Shown: positions 1 through 7,311 of the stretch, one piece after another | Position numbering within the stretch: the first letter of the stretch is position 1 | Layout of the letters: every line of letters begins with the position of its first letter | Assembly: GCF_003018255.1 (NCBI RefSeq) | Contig: NZ_CP027440.1 | Length of the DNA: 64,000 nt | From: Escherichia coli | GTDB taxonomy: Bacteria > Pseudomonadota > Gammaproteobacteria > Enterobacterales > Enterobacteriaceae | Strand: one strand, 5' to 3' | Position numbers and translations under genes: made by a program | Notes under the pieces: generated by a model | Databases searched by the model: none | Told to the model about the DNA's origin: nothing | What the model saw: only the letters and a program-made list of their open reading frames with translations

Positions 1-512
1 TGTTTAATCTCCTGGCATTCTTCAGGAATACCCCCTTTTATTTCCCTGCCATAAGCGCCTACTTTAAACACCACGCACAGGGCATCACGGGAGAGCGACG
101 GGGTCCACCAGGAGTCCATGTTAAACATGGAGGGGATTCTCATTACCCCCAGCTTTTCACAGAGCCAGACAAGGAAATCAGGACGCTTTCTTAACTCGCG
201 TTCAGCGGCTTCAATCATTGCGGCAATCGCCGGTCCTTCAGGGCATGACTCATCAGGTCTGGCAATAAAGCACGGTCCGTCCCCGATAAAAGCCACATCA
301 TCGCGCTTACGCCAGCCCGCAGGCAGAGCACCAGAAAAATAAAACTCACTGATTACGTCCATGGCAAACGGCTTTAAGCGCAATCCGGCAGCGCCTGTAT
401 TTTTCAGTAATGCCCGAAGAATACTGTTGCGTAGCGGTAAAACAGTCTGTTGATATTTGGTGAAATATTTATTTGTCTGCACACGGTCTAATTTGAAATA
501 AAAATATGCCAT
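1..512 (-). CDS. hypothetical phage early protein, N-terminal ~170 codons only (3' end beyond window)
   Basis: Hand translation: ATG at 512-510 preceded by AAGGAACAGG Shine-Dalgarno; frame stays open to position 1. Not in the ORF track because it has no stop in the window. No family recognised. Confidence 0.45.
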   Translation of the reverse strand, partial: MAYFYFKLDRVQTNKYFTKYQQTVLPLRNSILRALLKNTGAAGLRLKPFAMDVISEFYFSGALPAGWRKRDDVAFIGDGPCFIARPDESCPEGPAIAAMIEAAERELRKRPDFLVWLCEKLGVMRIPSMFNMDSWWTPSLSRDALCVVFKVGAYGREIKGGIPEECQEIK

Positions 513-609
513 ATATCCTGTTCCTTATTTTCAGTTTACAGGCGCAGGCAGTCCCCTGACGCGAGCGCCATACTTAAAACGATGTGATATTTAAAGATTT
601 AATGCGGTG

Positions 610-1140
610 TTATTTATTCAGTCCGGCGTCCTGTTCAAAAGGCTCGACATAAAAACTTTCAGCGCCTTTATTCACCTTAATACCGGCAATGCCTTTCACT
701 GCATCCGGCTCCGCCAGGACCGCTTCCTTGTTCACTTCCTCTTTCGTGCGGATGAATCGCTCAAGCCCCATACGGCGCAGCATTTCAATCACACCTTCCA
801 CATCACGGCTGACGCTGCATGATGGATTTCCCAGCCGCCATGATACTGTTCCGGTGGTCAGATTGGCTGTTTTGGTTTTGCCGCCGTTCGTCAGCTCATC
901 GCGGTTGGTTTTGCACCAGTCCTGAATCCCCTTAAAAAGCACTTTGATTTCTTTTTTAAGGTTTTCAATCTGCGGCGTATAACGGGCGGTGATTTCTGCC
1001 ACTTCATCATTCATCGCCGTTTCCAGCCGCAGCGCCTCTCGCTGAATATCGCCCAGGGTACGGATATCGCGGCTGACTTCTTCGCGGGTCTGCGGTGCAG
1101 CCTCGGCTGCGGCCTTTAATTTTGTAACACGTTTAGCCAT
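610..1140 (-). CDS. gam: Gam-like host-nuclease inhibitor (Mu Gam family)
   Basis: 176 aa ORF; sequence (LETAMNDEVAEIT...NRDELTNGGKTKTANL...FIRTKEEVNKEA) closely parallels Mu Gam as recalled; AAGGA RBS upstream of ATG at 1140. Confidence 0.85.
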   Translation of the reverse strand: MAKRVTKLKAAAEAAPQTREEVSRDIRTLGDIQREALRLETAMNDEVAEITARYTPQIENLKKEIKVLFKGIQDWCKTNRDELTNGGKTKTANLTTGTVSWRLGNPSCSVSRDVEGVIEMLRRMGLERFIRTKEEVNKEAVLAEPDAVKGIAGIKVNKGAESFYVEPFEQDAGLNK

Positions 1141-1151
1141 TTTGTTTTTCC

Positions 1152-1445
1152 TTATTGCAGTGTGCCTGATGCTTTATGCACGCGGTGGCGTTTAATGATG
1201 GCATCCGCCCCAAAAGCCTGTACAGATGCCTGAAATTCCGCTGAGAGAAACTGAATAATTTCAGGACTGTGATACTGGAGAATACTTGCATAAACGTCAC
1301 AGAGTGACGTCGGCCTGTTATTCGTATCACGTTCTGTTTTTACATCCACACCAATCTTTTCATGCACTTCAACACAGTCATTGCCTGCCGGTTTTTCGTC
1401 ATGCGAAACATGCTTAAATTCAAAAATAACGCGTACTTTGCTCAT
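1152..1445 (-). CDS. hypothetical small protein (paralog A of a tandem pair)
   Basis: ORF track 1152..1472; likely start is the internal ATG at 1445 (MSKVRVIFEFKHV...) with AGGGG RBS; shares N-terminal motif and a C-terminal segment with the adjacent ORF. Confidence 0.5.
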   Translation of the reverse strand: MSKVRVIFEFKHVSHDEKPAGNDCVEVHEKIGVDVKTERDTNNRPTSLCDVYASILQYHSPEIIQFLSAEFQASVQAFGADAIIKRHRVHKASGTLQ

Positions 1446-1449
1446 GGAA

Positions 1450-1722
1450 TTACCCCTGCTGATTAAATTCATTACCTTTAATAACCCCGGAACGCATGCT
1501 CATATCTTTCATGAGCGCACTGGCTTTCATTGCCACAAGTTCAGCAAAGTCTCTGCTTTCCGCGAGCATAACCACCCCAAAAATCATGGCGGGTCCATCA
1601 CCTTTCTGCTTTATCCCGGTTGAACGTATGTCCAGACTTACCCCCATGCGCACTGTTCCATCAGCGTTTTTATGGATAACGTGCTCCTTGTATTCGAAAA
1701 TAATGCGTACGACTTTACTCAT
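1450..1722 (-). CDS. hypothetical small protein (paralog B of a tandem pair)
   Basis: 90 aa ORF starting MSKVVRIIFEYKEHV; GAGGA RBS; stop overlaps start of the next gene (4 bp), consistent with translational coupling in the early operon. Confidence 0.5.
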   Translation of the reverse strand: MSKVVRIIFEYKEHVIHKNADGTVRMGVSLDIRSTGIKQKGDGPAMIFGVVMLAESRDFAELVAMKASALMKDMSMRSGVIKGNEFNQQG

Positions 1723-2000
1723 CCTCTGGTCCTCGTTCTGTTTGGATAACTGACCCGGCGTCTGACCTCACGGCAGAACCGAATCATGGCATTAAAGGCT
1801 TCTTCCTCCGTCACCGCTTCCGGTATCCCCGGAACCAGTAACTGCTCCTGTTCATCACGTCCATGACGCGCCATAACCTCAATCACATGCCGTACCGTGG
1901 CAGGCTTTCCGGCAACTATCGGCAATGCACCTTCCGGCAGGACGTAACCAAACTCAATAAGACCACTCGACCACGCCCATGCAATGAGATTTTTTTTCAC
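1719..2000 (-). CDS. hypothetical small early protein (GTG start)
   Basis: 93 aa ORF in the tightly packed minus-strand operon; first codon is GTG; no recognisable family. Confidence 0.4.
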   Translation of the reverse strand: MKKNLIAWAWSSGLIEFGYVLPEGALPIVAGKPATVRHVIEVMARHGRDEQEQLLVPGIPEAVTEEEAFNAMIRFCREVRRRVSYPNRTRTRG

Positions 2001-2001
2001 C

Positions 2002-2256
2002 TCACACCTCCCAGTAAACCGTGCAGCCGCTGATGCGGGTGGCCTTCACACGGCGGCGCAGGCCGTTGGTCTGTATGGTGATTTCAATTTCACCGGTTCC
2101 CTGCACGTTGCCTACCGGCGGCGTGGTTTTCAGTGCAAAACGTTGCGGATAGCGCTTACTGCGTTCCAGTACCGCACCGGCAAGTTCGGTCAGACGGCGC
2201 GCGCTGTTCAGGGAGTCGAATAAATTCATTTTGTTACCGCAGGATTGCATATTCAT
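2002..2256 (-). CDS. hypothetical small early protein
   Basis: ORF track 2002..2268; ATG at 2256 has a GAGGTG RBS so is the preferred start; no recognisable family. Confidence 0.4.
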   Translation of the reverse strand: MNMQSCGNKMNLFDSLNSARRLTELAGAVLERSKRYPQRFALKTTPPVGNVQGTGEIEITIQTNGLRRRVKATRISGCTVYWEV

Positions 2257-2268
2257 ATAACACCTCAT

Positions 2269-2490
2269 TTAGCTGACTTGTTTCGCACCAACAGAACGGC
2301 ATATTCCGCTGTAAACGTCTGTCGCACCTTCGCGATCAAGTCCGGCAGATATCACCATTCGTGTGCGGTCATTAAATTCAAAAAGAAAATCGCCACATTC
2401 TTTATTTTCGGCCAGTGAAATCACCTTCACGTTATCGAAATTAACCAGGTAAAAGCGTCCGTAAATATCAGGAATATTAAATACCGCCAT
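2269..2490 (-). CDS. small early protein in the position of Mu kil (73-75 aa)
   Basis: ORF 2269..2496 immediately after the B homolog with a GTGA/TGA start-stop overlap; ATG at 2490 has an AGGTG RBS. Kil assignment is by position and size only. Confidence 0.4.
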   Translation of the reverse strand: MAVFNIPDIYGRFYLVNFDNVKVISLAENKECGDFLFEFNDRTRMVISAGLDREGATDVYSGICRSVGAKQVS

Positions 2491-2492
2491 AA

Positions 2493-3425
2493 TCACACCT
2501 GTGAGAGTAATTCAGGGTTGGTATAAACCTCTTTAAAGGCCGCATTAATATGTTTTTCTGTCAGCGCCGCGCCTTCACCGCTGGCGGTGAGCCACGCCTG
2601 GTTAAGCGTATGTGTCAGAACGCGTAACGCTCCCGGCTTTTCAGCGATAGCCTGCATGACGGCCAGCTCGGCCTCACCACTGATCCCCCACGCCCTGGCA
2701 ATGGCCAGCACATCCGCCTTTTTGGCCTTGCGAAGTTGTTTTGTACGGGCAAGACGGCTGAACAGGCGCGATAAATCATCAAAGGCGCGGCGTCCACCTT
2801 TAAACAATCCGCGCGGGTTACCAATAAGCACCATCCCGATCCCCGTGGCGTCCTGAATTGCCCGGAGTTGCTCCAGACCGTCAATACCAAGATGATCCGC
2901 CTCATCCACAATCACCAGTCCACGCGTTCCCATCAGGCGACGGCGGATGGCGCGGGATAATGCCCCTTTGTTCGCGCGGGTGTAATCAATCCCCAGCGCA
3001 TCGGCCAGCTCCAGCAGACACTCCGTGACGCTGGAGTGCGCGGGTGACAGGGTGATCATCCAGGTGTTTGGTTGCTCCTGGCAGTAATTACGGGCAGTGG
3101 CCGTTTTACCCACACCCGGTACGCCCACAATAACGTTAATACAGCCCATCAGACGAACCGCCTGAAACAGTGCGCGCAGCTCCTGGACTGTCTGCGTTTC
3201 CACAAACTGCGGCGGTTCCGGCAGTGCGCTTTGTTTATTCCAGTTCTCATACCAGGAACGCAGGGAAGCAGCCACAGCAGCGTTATCGCCTTTATATTTT
3301 CCCTTACGGAAAGCCGATAATGTGCCGTCGGAAATTCCCGCCTCTCTGGCGATGGCATACTGCGTCAGTACGCCGCCATCAATAAGTTCATCAATGGTCT
3401 TGATTACATCGTTAATATCAGTCAT
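2493..3425 (-). CDS. MuB-like transposition ATPase
   Basis: 310 aa; Walker A GVPGVGKT, and extended similarity to Mu B as recalled (PEPPQFVETQTV, LVIVDEADHL, KPGALR). Confidence 0.9.
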   Translation of the reverse strand: MTDINDVIKTIDELIDGGVLTQYAIAREAGISDGTLSAFRKGKYKGDNAAVAASLRSWYENWNKQSALPEPPQFVETQTVQELRALFQAVRLMGCINVIVGVPGVGKTATARNYCQEQPNTWMITLSPAHSSVTECLLELADALGIDYTRANKGALSRAIRRRLMGTRGLVIVDEADHLGIDGLEQLRAIQDATGIGMVLIGNPRGLFKGGRRAFDDLSRLFSRLARTKQLRKAKKADVLAIARAWGISGEAELAVMQAIAEKPGALRVLTHTLNQAWLTASGEGAALTEKHINAAFKEVYTNPELLSQV

Positions 3426-3496
3426 ATTATTAACCTCTCATTTGATACCTTGTTTAATCAAATAACCTGAGTCGCCGCTCGGGTTATTTTTTTATT

Positions 3497-5587
3497 TCAG
3501 GCCAGCGGGTCATTTTCTTTTAATTTCGCTTCCAGCAACTGCAATCCCCGCTGGAAATTACGCTCGTATTCTTCATCAGGTTCATCGTCAGCGACCGGTT
3601 GCTGAACGGTCACCGTATTACCCACAGGGCGGTATATGTTTTCCAGCCAGGGCTCCTGCGGCTTGTGCTCCAGCACGTTGACAACCTCATCCTCGGCATC
3701 ACGGATTTTTTCCTCTGCGCGTTTACGCATGCCTTTAAGGCGTTGCTGCTGTTTGTAGTATTCCGCGCTAACCGGGAAGGCTTCGCGTTTATTACCGTCC
3801 CATACCGCCTCGCAAATCACGCTGCCATCCAGGCGACGTACGGTAATTCGTTCGGCATCATGAATGTCATAGCTGATAAGCACCTTACGACCATGCTCGT
3901 CACGCAGCTCGGGCGCGTAGTAAATATTATTCAGCCAGCGTATTTCACAGCGTCTTACAGGGCGTTCCACCATCGGCCGGAACATATCCCGCAGCTCAAC
4001 ATCGGACAGCCATTCAATTTCCGTGTCCTCTTCCGCCAGGCGTTTTTTTCTGAACTCCGCCGGGCTGTAATGCTTGCCGTTCGGCTTCACCGGTAATTCA
4101 TCGTGCGGCCGGTTGTTGTACCACTCAACACCGTCACGAATGGCATCAATCAGTTCAGACCAGGACGGTAAATCACGCATCGCTGACTGCTGCCGGGCGT
4201 TCAGCCGTTTGCCCTGTTGCAGGGCAGTAAATGCCGAGCGTAAATCGCGGTTGGTTTTGCGTAACGTCTCGCGATCTGCACCTTTCCCGAAATAGGTGCG
4301 GTATTTACGGGCTATGCGCATCGGTAATGTGCGGTTAAGCCGTTCGATAATGCCTCGTCCCTGCGGATTACCGGCAATCCCGGTCGGGTGATTAATCCCC
4401 AGTCGCGGCAGTATCCCCACAACCTCCTTATCCAGGATGTCGGCGGTTTCCCCGGAGCCGTTATCCGAGTAATACAGAAACGGTTTGCCGTGATGGCGAA
4501 TGCCGTGCTGTATGGCACCGGCTACGGCGAAAACATTTTCAGCCAGGTCAAGGCTCCAGCCCACCACAAAGCGCGTGCCACCGTCGATAACAAAGGTCAC
4601 TTCCGGTGCAAATGGCCGACCGTGAACCGGGTGTGCGCATTTCAGCTTCATGCCGTGACCGTCACCAATCCAGACATAATTCACCGGCATTCTGGACCAG
4701 TCGCGGCGCGTGAATCCCTCAAGCTGGCGGTATTCACTGCCGGTCACCCGGCCTTTTTGTTTCACCACTTCCGGCAGTTTCTTCATTGCGCGGCGAATGG
4801 TGTCATAAGACGGCATGATATCGAGCATATAAGGCTCATCAGCGTGCCGGTGCTGCCATTCAGCGACAAAATCCTCGTAAGCCTCGGTCATTGGTCGGCC
4901 GTTTGACTGGCGATACTGCGCCAGAAATTCGGGCAGCCAGTTAATATCTTCAGCTTTTATTTCCTGGCGCTTACCCGGTGCCAGTAAAAGCAGGCGTTCA
5001 GCGGCGTTCTGCGCCTTGTTAAAGGCCGCAATCCAGCGTTTCAGCGTTATTTCACTCAACGCACGGCTGTTTCCCTTTTTGGCGTTCGCCGTCTCAACCA
5101 TTGCCACAATGCGCTCGTCCAGTTGCGAACGTGCCAGGTTGTCAACGATAAACCGGATAGCTTTCGCACAGCTGAAACCGGGTTGTTGCGCGACTTTCAT
5201 CACTTCGCTGACGATCGCAATTCGTGCATCAGCCACCTGGCGCTGGTTTTCAGTCAGGGCATTAAGGCGTTCAACCATCAGTTGTGGTGATCCGCGATAT
5301 GCCTCCACCGCATCAACCACGGCAGGCGAGCGTCTGGCCTTTGTCACCACCGGAGCCGGTGATTCATCAGCTTTTTGCGTCATCAGTTGAAGGGCATAAC
5401 GTTCACGCAATACTTGTTGCGCGCCAGAAGGCAAACAATCGATATTAAATTCGATTGCTTTTGTCCCCTTACGTTTGCGTAACATGGCTGCATTTCCCGC
5501 AGCTGCTTTTGTGAGTCGATGGCGAATGTTATGTTCCATCATTGGTAAATCAGGAAGACCAACACATTCTTTTGCTGTTACCCACAT
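3497..5587 (-). CDS. MuA-like DDE transposase
   Basis: 696 aa; N-terminus MWVTAKECVGLPDLP parallels Mu A MELWVSPKECANLPGLP; candidate catalytic D-D-E residues in WIGDGHG, YYSDNGSGE and GIIERLN; GGGGGA RBS. Confidence 0.9.
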   Translation of the reverse strand: MWVTAKECVGLPDLPMMEHNIRHRLTKAAAGNAAMLRKRKGTKAIEFNIDCLPSGAQQVLRERYALQLMTQKADESPAPVVTKARRSPAVVDAVEAYRGSPQLMVERLNALTENQRQVADARIAIVSEVMKVAQQPGFSCAKAIRFIVDNLARSQLDERIVAMVETANAKKGNSRALSEITLKRWIAAFNKAQNAAERLLLLAPGKRQEIKAEDINWLPEFLAQYRQSNGRPMTEAYEDFVAEWQHRHADEPYMLDIMPSYDTIRRAMKKLPEVVKQKGRVTGSEYRQLEGFTRRDWSRMPVNYVWIGDGHGMKLKCAHPVHGRPFAPEVTFVIDGGTRFVVGWSLDLAENVFAVAGAIQHGIRHHGKPFLYYSDNGSGETADILDKEVVGILPRLGINHPTGIAGNPQGRGIIERLNRTLPMRIARKYRTYFGKGADRETLRKTNRDLRSAFTALQQGKRLNARQQSAMRDLPSWSELIDAIRDGVEWYNNRPHDELPVKPNGKHYSPAEFRKKRLAEEDTEIEWLSDVELRDMFRPMVERPVRRCEIRWLNNIYYAPELRDEHGRKVLISYDIHDAERITVRRLDGSVICEAVWDGNKREAFPVSAEYYKQQQRLKGMRKRAEEKIRDAEDEVVNVLEHKPQEPWLENIYRPVGNTVTVQQPVADDEPDEEYERNFQRGLQLLEAKLKENDPLA

Positions 5588-5597
5588 ACATCCCCCA

Positions 5598-5864
5598 TCA
5601 AGCCACTTCTCTGGCGTCCACCTGGTATCTGCTGGGCCAGATTACAGCAGGTTCAACCCCTATTTTTTCGGCGATGGCGGCTTCGTATTTACGGCACTGG
5701 CGGTAAAACACATTGCGCATTGATCCGCTTTTTAATCCTAACTCCCTTTCCAGTTCAGGGAGGTCTGTGCCTTTGTTTTCAAGGGCTGCATATACCGCTT
5801 TAGCAGACCAGTCACACCCCTCTCGAACAAACAAATTATTCGATGCTTGTCTGGATACCCTCAT
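5598..5864 (-). CDS. Ner-like DNA-binding regulator
   Basis: 88 aa; C-terminal VIWPSRYQ and overall alignment to Mu Ner as recalled; AGAGGA RBS; first gene of the early operon. Confidence 0.8.
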   Translation of the reverse strand: MRVSRQASNNLFVREGCDWSAKAVYAALENKGTDLPELERELGLKSGSMRNVFYRQCRKYEAAIAEKIGVEPAVIWPSRYQVDAREVA

Positions 5865-6020
5865 TGTGTGATCCTCTCATGTTTACCTGAACCGATAATC
5901 AAAACCGGTTATCGATTTAGGTAAATCATAATCGCAAAATAATTCGATATCAACGGTTTTTTGCGAGCATATCGAAATTAAATGCGATGTCGATAATTTC
6001 TTTGTTTTATAGGGGGTTAT
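5865..6020. promoter_or_regulatory. divergent immunity/early control region (operators and promoters between ner and repressor)
   Basis: 156 bp AT-rich intergenic region between divergent genes with at least five copies of a CGATA/TATCG half-site (e.g. CGATAA at 5893 and 5991, TTATCG at 5909) in direct and inverted orientation. Confidence 0.55.
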
Positions 6021-6632
6021 ATGGATAAGGCAGAAAAAACCGTATCCAGTGCGGAACGGTTTATTGATATGGAAGGAATAAACCGATTTTCAGAACGCTT
6101 AGCTATGGCTATGGGAAACATGACAAACGTCGAACTGGCGACCCTTTGTGGACTATCTGAAGCCACAGTAAGAAATTACAGGAAGGGGAAAAACTTCCCT
6201 CCTTTGGATAAACTGGCCTTAATAGCTAAAGCCTGTAATTGTTCACTCGAATGGTTGGCCACAGGCAAGAACGAAGATGAATGCGGAAAAATCGAAAACA
6301 ATTGCGATTCAGGTTCGGGTATTGATCAGGCGCTTAGCTCTCTAAGCCCCCAAGAGAAGCAATTAATCCTTACATTCATCAGGCGAGAAGGTACTAATAA
6401 CCTTGTCAGGCTGGCAGCAATGAATACATCTACAATCAGCCAGGATGCGGTAGAAAGCATCATTGATGCCTTGCCATTACGTCCCGTACTAAAAAATGCA
6501 ATAAAGATAGGAATGGCGGGAAGTGAAGAAACAGACAAAGAGATTTTGCGCGTTATTGAGAAGTACAACTCGAGCAATAACGCCACCCAGGAATCAGGGG
6601 CAGTGACAGTAAAGAAAAATGTTGTTGGTTAA
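6021..6632 (+). CDS. prophage repressor, cI/XRE-type helix-turn-helix
   Basis: 203 aa; N-terminal HTH (ELATLCGLSEATVRNYRKGKNFPPLDKLALIAKACNCSLEWL); transcribed divergently from ner toward the prophage end as in Mu c; AGGGGG RBS. Not similar to Mu c itself. Confidence 0.7.
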   Translation: MDKAEKTVSSAERFIDMEGINRFSERLAMAMGNMTNVELATLCGLSEATVRNYRKGKNFPPLDKLALIAKACNCSLEWLATGKNEDECGKIENNCDSGSGIDQALSSLSPQEKQLILTFIRREGTNNLVRLAAMNTSTISQDAVESIIDALPLRPVLKNAIKIGMAGSEETDKEILRVIEKYNSSNNATQESGAVTVKKNVVG

Positions 6633-6776
6633 GCGCCATCGCTATCATGAGGTGGTGCTGTAAATACATATAGAGATCATATGACTCATCCCAAGATAAT
6701 CACGCTATTGAATAGTAATTCATGATGATTATCATACTGATTATAGTTAGATCGATTATGTGAGCATTTTGGCAGT

Positions 6777-6810
6777 TTGAAGATGTTTTGAAGATGTTTT
6801 GAAGAAGATT
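6777..6810. repeat. tandem direct repeats (TTGAAGATGTT x2 plus a variant) in attL, candidate internal transposase-binding sites
   Basis: Seen directly: TTGAAGATGTT TTGAAGATGTT TTGAAGAAGATT about 100-135 bp from the inferred end, similar spacing to Mu L2/L3. Confidence 0.45.
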
Positions 6811-6890
6811 TTAAGGGTAAATTAGCAGTATCAAATGTGTCGCCGTTTTTTGATCTTTTGACTATTTGTTGAGCAGTCGGTATCAAAAAG

Positions 6891-6912
6891 AGTTTTCCGT
6901 CCGAAGTATACA
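6891..6912. repeat. terminal transposase-binding site and prophage left end
   Basis: Reverse complement TGTATACTTCGGACGGAAAACT resembles the Mu terminal site (TGTAT...ACGAAAA) and ends in the TG/CA dinucleotide. Confidence 0.5.
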
Positions 6913-6981
6913 TCACCTGTTTTATTTCAGCATCTTACAGGTGATTTCACCTCCTTTCACTAAAACCCTTGTCGGTATCAA

Positions 6982-7311
6982 ATGATTCACCTGGTTACAA
7001 ACGATGGATTGATTGATAACCTGCCACAAGGATGTTGCGTGGAAGTAGCCTGTCTGGTTGATGCTAATGGCATTCAGCCGACCAAAGTCGGTACGTTACC
7101 TTCGCATCTGGCCGCCCTGATGCAAACCAACATCAACGTACAGACGCTGCTGACCGAAGCCATTCTTACGGAAAATCGCGACCGTGTTTACCACGCTGCG
7201 ATGATGGACCCGCATACTGCCGCCGTGCTGGGCATTGATGAAATATATGCTCTTGTTGACGACCTGATTGCCGCCCACGGCGACTGGCTGCCAGGCTGGT
7301 TGCACCGTTAA
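6982..7311 (+). pseudogene. melA: melA 3' fragment (alpha-galactosidase, glycoside hydrolase family 4 C-terminus)
   Basis: 109 aa ORF with GH4 C-terminal motifs (NDGLIDNLP...VEVACLVD...MMDPHTAA); in-frame stop 7 codons upstream at 6961, so the 5' part of the gene is absent. Confidence 0.6.

Follow-up and report, generated by a model that had tools for sequence, protein, structure and literature searches.

An ancient pair of small paralogs in the early operon of an Escherichia coli Mu-like prophage and its possible relation to Mu gp7 (Gnarl2)

Two adjacent small genes, here called ORF-A and ORF-B, in the early operon of a Mu-like prophage are very likely paralogs over most of their length, and their sequence divergence indicates an old duplication. 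They were identified in a 64,000-nucleotide stretch of Escherichia coli contig NZ_CP027440.1 (hereafter the window). Both genes are under purifying selection, and their alleles form deep lineages that have been reshuffled by recombination. Phage Mu gp7, also known as Gnarl2, is probably a distant relative of both. The explanation that we favor as a whole, with slightly more confidence than doubt, is that ORF-A and ORF-B are ancient paralogs whose products would bind host proteins in the manner of Gnarl2.

The first approximately 7 kb of the window represent the early (left) end of the prophage. The initial annotation had placed two ORFs with starts at 1722 and 1445 in tandem within a phage early operon, and both are indeed found there, adjacent and on the minus strand, as are all other early-operon genes discussed here. 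The order of transcription is transposase A, MuB-like ATPase, orf75, kil-like gene, orf93, ORF-A, ORF-B and gam. The features are as follows.

5587..3497, minus strand: transposase A (ORF list and PHROG matching)
3425..2493, minus strand: MuB-like ATPase (ORF list and PHROG matching)
2496..2269, minus strand: orf75 (ORF list and PHROG matching)
2002..2268, minus strand: kil-like gene, upstream of orf93 (phrog_2679, E 7.8e-46)
1719..2000, minus strand: orf93, the module upstream of ORF-A (phrog_1518)
1723..1760, minus strand: leader and ribosome-binding stretch upstream of ORF-A, which also codes for the 3' end of orf93
1450..1722, minus strand: ORF-A, 90 aa (phrog_4107, E 1e-61)
1672..1722, minus strand: shared N-terminal beta-strand motif MSKVVRIIFEYKEHVIH, ORF-A codons 1-17
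1152..1445, minus strand: ORF-B, 97 aa from the ATG at 1445 (phrog_2230, E 1.3e-40)
1401..1445, minus strand: shared N-terminal motif MSKVRVIFEFKHVSH, ORF-B codons 1-15, and recombination junction between the ORF-B lineages B1 and B2
610..1140, minus strand: gam (Mu Gam-like DNA-end protection), directly downstream of ORF-B (phrog_491, E 3.5e-70)

The run of genes is tightly packed. The stop codon of orf93 overlaps the start codon of ORF-A (ATGA), 4 nt separate the ORF-A stop from the ORF-B start, and 11 nt separate the ORF-B stop from the gam start. A Shine-Dalgarno-like sequence is present at each start, that of ORF-A (GAGGA/AGAGG) immediately preceding its ATG, and neither a promoter-like nor a terminator-like site was found between these genes on the coding strand. 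The mechanically defined reading frame of ORF-B starts at 1472; its homologs and the RefSeq annotation begin at MSKV. The current annotation of both genes is restricted to "hypothetical protein". Among the neighbors, the product of gam is 57% identical to Mu Gam, homologs of the kil-like gene in related loci are assigned to PF26843 (Kil_protein), and orf93 is labeled "host nuclease inhibitor" in PHROGs (phrog_1518) and in some PGAP records and has no match in Pfam, even at E 10.

At positions 600-2500, the window shares 97% identity with a "Mu-like phage" that has inserted itself into an Stx2c phage (LC727881). The match to this Mu-like element covers positions 1-5421 of the window, and positions 6910-6999 match the end of the element; the immunity region in between (5422-6909, the repressor/ner side) gave no blastn match to this Mu-like phage, which is otherwise 97.5% identical. 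Since the last 90 bp match the phage end and nothing matches beyond them, we place the prophage boundary near position 6999.

The similarity of the two proteins is concentrated in the N-terminal motif noticed in the initial annotation. Here MSKVVRIIFEYKEHVIH and MSKV-RVIFEFK-HVSH are identical at 12 of 17 positions (BLASTP E 9e-4), and only one of 2000 shuffles reached the local score of the two proteins (z approximately 5). The C-terminal segment also claimed to be shared is a different case: with the N-terminus removed, the similarity of the two sequences is at the chance level (z 1.4), and overall identity is about 20%, so that this part of the claim finds no confirmation in the two sequences alone; a comparison of families extends the match. 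For this purpose, alignments of the A and B families were built from homologs and compared profile to profile using hhalign. The first alignments yielded E 1.1e-5 over 42 columns; with the Salmonella clade added to the B family, the match extended over 63-74 columns, about two thirds of the protein length (probability 86.7%, E 4.4e-6). The score of this match was 35.2, compared with 11.5 +/- 2.3 (maximum 20.4) in 200 column-shuffled controls (z approximately 10).

These values leave a practically negligible probability that the similarity is due to chance or that one copy is a non-functional remnant. Such a reading could appeal to the shortness of the proteins and their low identity, but it is contradicted by the BLASTP, shuffling and hhalign results, by dN/dS ratios well below one for both genes, and by the presence of both as intact genes in about 230 genomes, which also disposes of a frameshifted copy. 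Another explanation, which we consider very unlikely, is that the two genes share only a module: a common N-terminal beta-strand would have been spread by recombination at the conserved 5' joint, and the remainders of these mosaic genes would be unrelated. In its favor are the chance-level pairwise similarity outside residues 1-17, the confinement of the hhalign match between the A family and the B1 clade to residues 1-25, and the behavior of the motif segment as a recombination junction, the B1 and B2 lineages being identical over the first 30 nt of ORF-B and then differing with pS of 0.5-0.74. However, a comparison of motif-free profiles aligned residues 23-64 of A with residues 26-68 of B, in register, with a score of 18.2 (null 10.2 +/- 2.2, null maximum 19.7, z approximately 3.6). 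Register is likewise kept when the A family is aligned with B2, the second E. coli clade of B, along almost the entire length (1-80 with 1-84, E 3e-5) and with the Salmonella clade in the middle part only (27-58 with 30-62, E 0.019), and the proteins are alike in length and in the order of predicted secondary structure elements. Paralogy over most of the length is thus the reading with which we proceed.

ORF-A and ORF-B are full-length, high-scoring members of phrog_4107 and phrog_2230, respectively, which the remote-homology clustering of PHROGs keeps as separate families, both of "unknown function". At the level of sequence profiles, our comparison indicates that they form one superfamily. 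An exhaustive search of 1.84 billion representative proteins with the joint profile produced only 14 hits, and hence bridging sequences are absent from that library.

The duplication had been described as recent, which is at odds with several observations. Beyond the low overall identity, in the motif itself 5.5 of 8 synonymous sites differ between ORF-A and ORF-B (pS 0.69, near saturation), compared with 4.5 of 37 non-synonymous sites (pN 0.12), and in locus P0063 an ORF-A allele only 55% identical to that of the window already adjoins an ORF-B that is 93% identical. The DNA of the start regions can be aligned, as had been noted; given the number of synonymous differences in it, the motif is conserved at the protein level. 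The same differences rule against gene conversion keeping the N-termini alike.

To characterize selection, we calculated dN/dS ratios by the Nei-Gojobori method for genes from 13 loci. The ratios are 0.25-0.40 for ORF-A and, in well-diverged pairs, 0.3-0.45 for ORF-B, compared with 0.03-0.1 for gam and 0.1-0.27 for orf93. This demonstrates that both genes are real and constrained by purifying selection, which is 3-10 times more relaxed than in gam. In the 13 loci, no gene-wide ratio exceeded one, apart from pairs that differ by very few substitutions. Replacements among alleles cluster at the hairpin tip, in the loop and in the C-terminal part; in those of these regions where the synonymous counts were usable, pN/pS is 0.46-0.85, and the diversifying selection suggested in the initial annotation therefore finds no support either gene-wide or regionally. 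Alleles hardly vary in the N-terminal strand, in strand 2 and in helix 1, and ORF-A alleles show zero non-synonymous differences in codons 1-13.

The structural terms refer to AlphaFold2 models. For ORF-B (pLDDT 83.1, pTM 0.68), the model confidently predicts a long two-stranded beta-hairpin that begins within the first few residues (strands 4-21 and 24-39) and two consecutive helices (48-58 and 60-77) packed along it. The model of ORF-A has low confidence (pLDDT 53.7, shallow alignment) and features strands 3-18 and 24-35, a short strand 45-51 and a helix 54-73, so that for ORF-A the hairpin-plus-helices topology is only suggested, and ORF-B is the one protein of the pair for which the fold is shown. 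The sole non-self structural neighbor of ORF-B was an unnamed protein of 85 aa in AFDB50, A0A071LTF3 (Foldseek probability 0.95, TM 0.50-0.55, 22% identity, E 0.41), which may be a further member of the family.

Among 5426 complete E. coli genomes, 227 carry ORF-A (270 places in total) and 231 carry ORF-B (273 places); both genes are intact in about 227-231 of the 5426. The carriers are mostly O157:H7, O111, O26, O103 and O145 strains, and all 41 close homologs of ORF-A come from E. coli. A plasmid of 166,865 bp in strain 8479 carries one of the 273 copies of ORF-B (NZ_CP074995.1, positions 74589-74882), so that a Mu-like element has apparently been inserted into this large plasmid. TBLASTN of both proteins against 50,697 phage records yielded matches only in two Stx phages with an inserted Mu-like phage. 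In the libraries searched, members of the family occur only in Mu-like phages and prophages of enterobacteria.

Copy number does vary among related Mu-like prophages, a point that the initial annotation had proposed to check: a survey of gene order at 57 loci with family HMMs identified both one-copy and two-copy loci. The order kil, orf93, ORF-A, ORF-B, gam was found in at least 30 loci and the order kil, ORF-A, ORF-B, gam in at least 14; orf93, missing at the latter, is thus an optional module. ORF-A lies directly upstream of ORF-B in at least 50 loci. ORF-B-type genes unaccompanied by ORF-A are found in some Mu-like prophages of E. coli, where three loci (CI5, L009 and L055) have the order kil, ORF-B, gam, and in Salmonella, with the order kil, orf93, ORF-B, DUF3164. 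ORF-A without ORF-B was observed in one locus only (L017, strain 23CRST049). The widespread ORF-B type is basal, and ORF-A is an optional extra copy. A leader homologous to that of ORF-A in two-copy phages precedes the one ORF-B-type gene of CI5, which is the trace expected from a tandem duplication, or from its reversal by unequal recombination via the similar 5' ends.

Several loci depart from these arrangements in detail. In the Salmonella loci L006 and L007, the gene next after the ORF-B-type gene (4303-4941) encodes a DUF3164 protein (PF11363) and not Gam; DUF3164 at the gam slot of Salmonella Mu-like prophages looks like a replacement. In L017 (1-1744), ORF-A has an altered C-terminus and is followed by ISEc22, an element of the IS66 family, and the expected ORF-B and gam are not present there. 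In strains NCCP15648 and FORC_069 (L011, 1175-1477, and L014, 1521-1823), ORF-A has lost its stop codon and gained 10 extra codons, so that it comprises 100 aa and overlaps the start of ORF-B. Where orf93 is absent (L004, L008, L012, L015 and L016), kil is followed by a 74-nt spacer; in the window, the last approximately 38 nt of the counterpart of this spacer code for the C-terminus of orf93 and hold the ribosome-binding site of ORF-A.

Deep allelic lineages reshuffled by recombination are seen in place of diversifying selection. The lineages B1 and B2 share about 59% protein identity (dS 0.7-1.2). The gam genes that accompany them have dS of no more than 0.25, and the accompanying ORF-A proteins are identical. 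Thus, the ORF-A and Gam proteins of the window and of L005 are identical, whereas their ORF-B genes belong to the two different lineages (dN 0.32, dS 0.97), with no differences in codons 1-10 and pS of 0.5-0.74 thereafter. Since the first ten codons are identical between the lineages, the recombination junction is placed in the segment coding for the motif. Alleles of the two genes are also combined freely: relative to the window, strain JNEC-KY203 has an ORF-A with 98.6% and an ORF-B with 71% identity, and strain 600029 an ORF-A with 86.8% and an ORF-B with 96.3% identity.

The protein with a phenotype that comes closest to the pair is Gnarl2, which is phage Mu gp7 (E6, Mup07, orf63, NP_050611.1; Silas et al., Nat Commun 2025, PMC12373910; bioRxiv 10.1101/2023.04.06.535777); the identity of Mup07 and Gnarl2 was confirmed by the sequence in the supplement of PMC12373910. 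Expression of Gnarl2 in wild E. coli shifted the O-antigen ladder downwards in ECOR1 and ECOR22 and increased plating of T5 by 10^5-10^6-fold (PMC12373910). Mu gp7 was first suggested as a relative by comparison with the Mu early genes by eye; BLASTP of the window proteins against Mu early proteins linked only gam and kil. In a MAFFT alignment, Mu gp7 is collinear with both the A and B families, it matches phrog_2230, the family of ORF-B, weakly over the full length (E 0.009), and it ranks first among 138 Mu ORFs in a search with the A+B HMM (E 0.23). We gathered 12 relatives of Mu gp7 from IMG/VR for a profile and compared it with the A+B profile using hhalign. The score was 15.8 in the local mode (null 9.6 +/- 2.1) and 13.0 in the global mode (null 3.9 +/- 2.6), reached in each case by one of 60 shuffles, which is marginal (hhalign probability about 1%, P 0.015-0.03). 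A scan of genome contigs returned no relatives of Mu gp7, and Mu gp7 itself has no match in Pfam, even at E 10.

In the published AlphaFold model of Mu gp7 (residues 1-67 analyzed by C-alpha trace; per-residue pLDDT 67-97), a strand (1-14), a turn (15-18) and a second strand (19-33) are paired in register (2:32 to 16:19) and followed by a helix (38-50), a kink at Ser51 and another helix (52-67). The order of elements, by which the two models were compared, is common to Mu gp7 and ORF-B, and the serine at the helix kink is nearly invariant in the joint alignment. A BFVD fold search gave no Mu protein among the 50 best matches listed, and no listed match had E below 0.18. A hairpin with two helices is a simple topology, and its independent origin in these models could be conceived. 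We nevertheless regard a distant relationship of Mu gp7 to ORF-A and ORF-B as probable.

Searches with ORF-A and ORF-B themselves produced no match in Pfam, even at E 10, nothing meaningful in NCBIfam and in PADLOC, whose models describe defence and not anti-defence, and chance hits only in sequence-profile searches of PDB (E of at least 0.09). No similarity to Gam (PF07352) or to other nuclease-inhibitor families was found in Pfam, NCBIfam and PDB, and fold searches returned weak generic matches or the proteins themselves. Judging from residue counts, neither protein is strongly acidic, which makes a DNA mimic unlikely, and no hydrophobic stretch is long enough for a membrane helix when judged by eye, which speaks against a membrane or secreted protein.

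We propose that ORF-A and ORF-B are ancient tandem paralogs from a family of small cytoplasmic proteins of enterobacterial Mu-like phages, and that both would be translated from a polycistronic early transcript, between kil or orf93 and gam. A duplication may have given rise to ORF-A, or a divergent allele may have become stacked in this slot, and purifying selection would have maintained the extra copy ever since. The conserved N-terminal strand would form the structural core, with the variation among alleles placed at the hairpin tip and in the C-terminal part. By analogy with Gnarl2, each protein would bind and perturb a host protein soon after induction, the most likely targets being in cell-envelope or O-antigen biosynthesis, and the two paralogs, together with their deep allelic lineages, would be directed at different targets in the host or at variants of a target. 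That the two proteins are small non-enzymatic binders of host proteins is reasonably likely, and an inhibitor-like character, as had been supposed, is plausible by the same analogy. A specifically Gnarl2-like effect on the O-antigen is a tentative suggestion. A more elaborate version, in which the pair is a diversified Gnarl2-like inhibitor set, each member binding a different or serotype-variant enzyme of O-antigen or LPS synthesis, the surface of Stx-producing E. coli (O157, O111, O26, O103) is remodelled on induction, and the A and B alleles track the O-antigen machinery, appears unlikely.

Two other functional explanations were weighed against the proposal of host-protein binders. The two proteins could be obligate partners in a heterodimer that is joined by their hairpins and works as a single unit; this is quite unlikely, since the ORF-B type occurs on its own in prophages of Salmonella and in CI5, L009 and L055, and the free reassortment of A and B alleles in JNEC-KY203 and 600029 argues against a tightly co-evolving interface. 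Alternatively, they could have a different function and act with Gam or DUF3164 in transposition or in the handling of DNA ends, for instance by assisting end protection. That the gene directly after the ORF-B type is always gam or, in prophages of Salmonella, the DUF3164 gene would fit such a role, as would the label of the adjoining orf93. Yet Mu has gam with no adjacent ORF-B-type gene, ORF-B types that are only about 59% identical stand beside a nearly invariant Gam (the window and L005), which would be unexpected of a Gam partner, and homology to nucleic-acid-binding or nuclease-inhibitor proteins was not found in Pfam, NCBIfam and PDB. We consider this role very improbable.

In summary, about 4% of the complete E. 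coli genomes, most of them from Shiga-toxin-producing lineages, contain Mu-like prophages with the pair, and its analysis would join two PHROG families without a function into one superfamily. We propose that the pair represents duplicated, divergent variants of the barely characterized Gnarl2 kind, of which Mu gp7 is the only protein with a phenotype (O-antigen alteration and phage sensitization), and this provides a testable lead. If the lead is true, small proteins without enzymatic activity would allow these prophages to modulate the O-antigen in pathogenic serotypes, and the diversity of paralogs and alleles would constitute a natural collection of inhibitors with different specificities. 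Should the lead prove wrong, the pair would remain a clean case of an old duplication that has been retained in the accessory region of a phage and whose conserved 5' coding segment doubles as a recombination joint.

Compared with ORF-A and ORF-B, Mu gp7 is of similar size (87 aa versus 90 and 97 aa), has its gene between kil and gam in the early operon (the semi-essential early region) of a phage from the Mu family, and has an N-terminal strand, AKVIIEIK, that resembles VRVIFEFK and VRIIFEYK. Like ORF-B, it is modeled as a hairpin from residue 1, a loop, a helix, a serine at the kink and a second helix. It differs from the pair in sequence (about 20% identity, and a separate PHROG, phrog_10252), in being single-copy in Mu, and in its distance from gam, gp8 and gp9 being situated in between; the O-antigen and T5-sensitization phenotype has been shown for Mu gp7 only. 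Duplicated and diversified small accessory or counter-defence genes are known in phages, for example in the accessory regions described by Silas et al. Unlike counter-defence genes, ORF-A and ORF-B are candidates only, with no PADLOC matches and with dN/dS below one throughout. Like phage accessory and counter-defence genes, they are small and have no recognizable domains, and they share with accessory genes the presence/absence polymorphism, the deep allelic lineages and the mosaic recombination beside conserved core genes.
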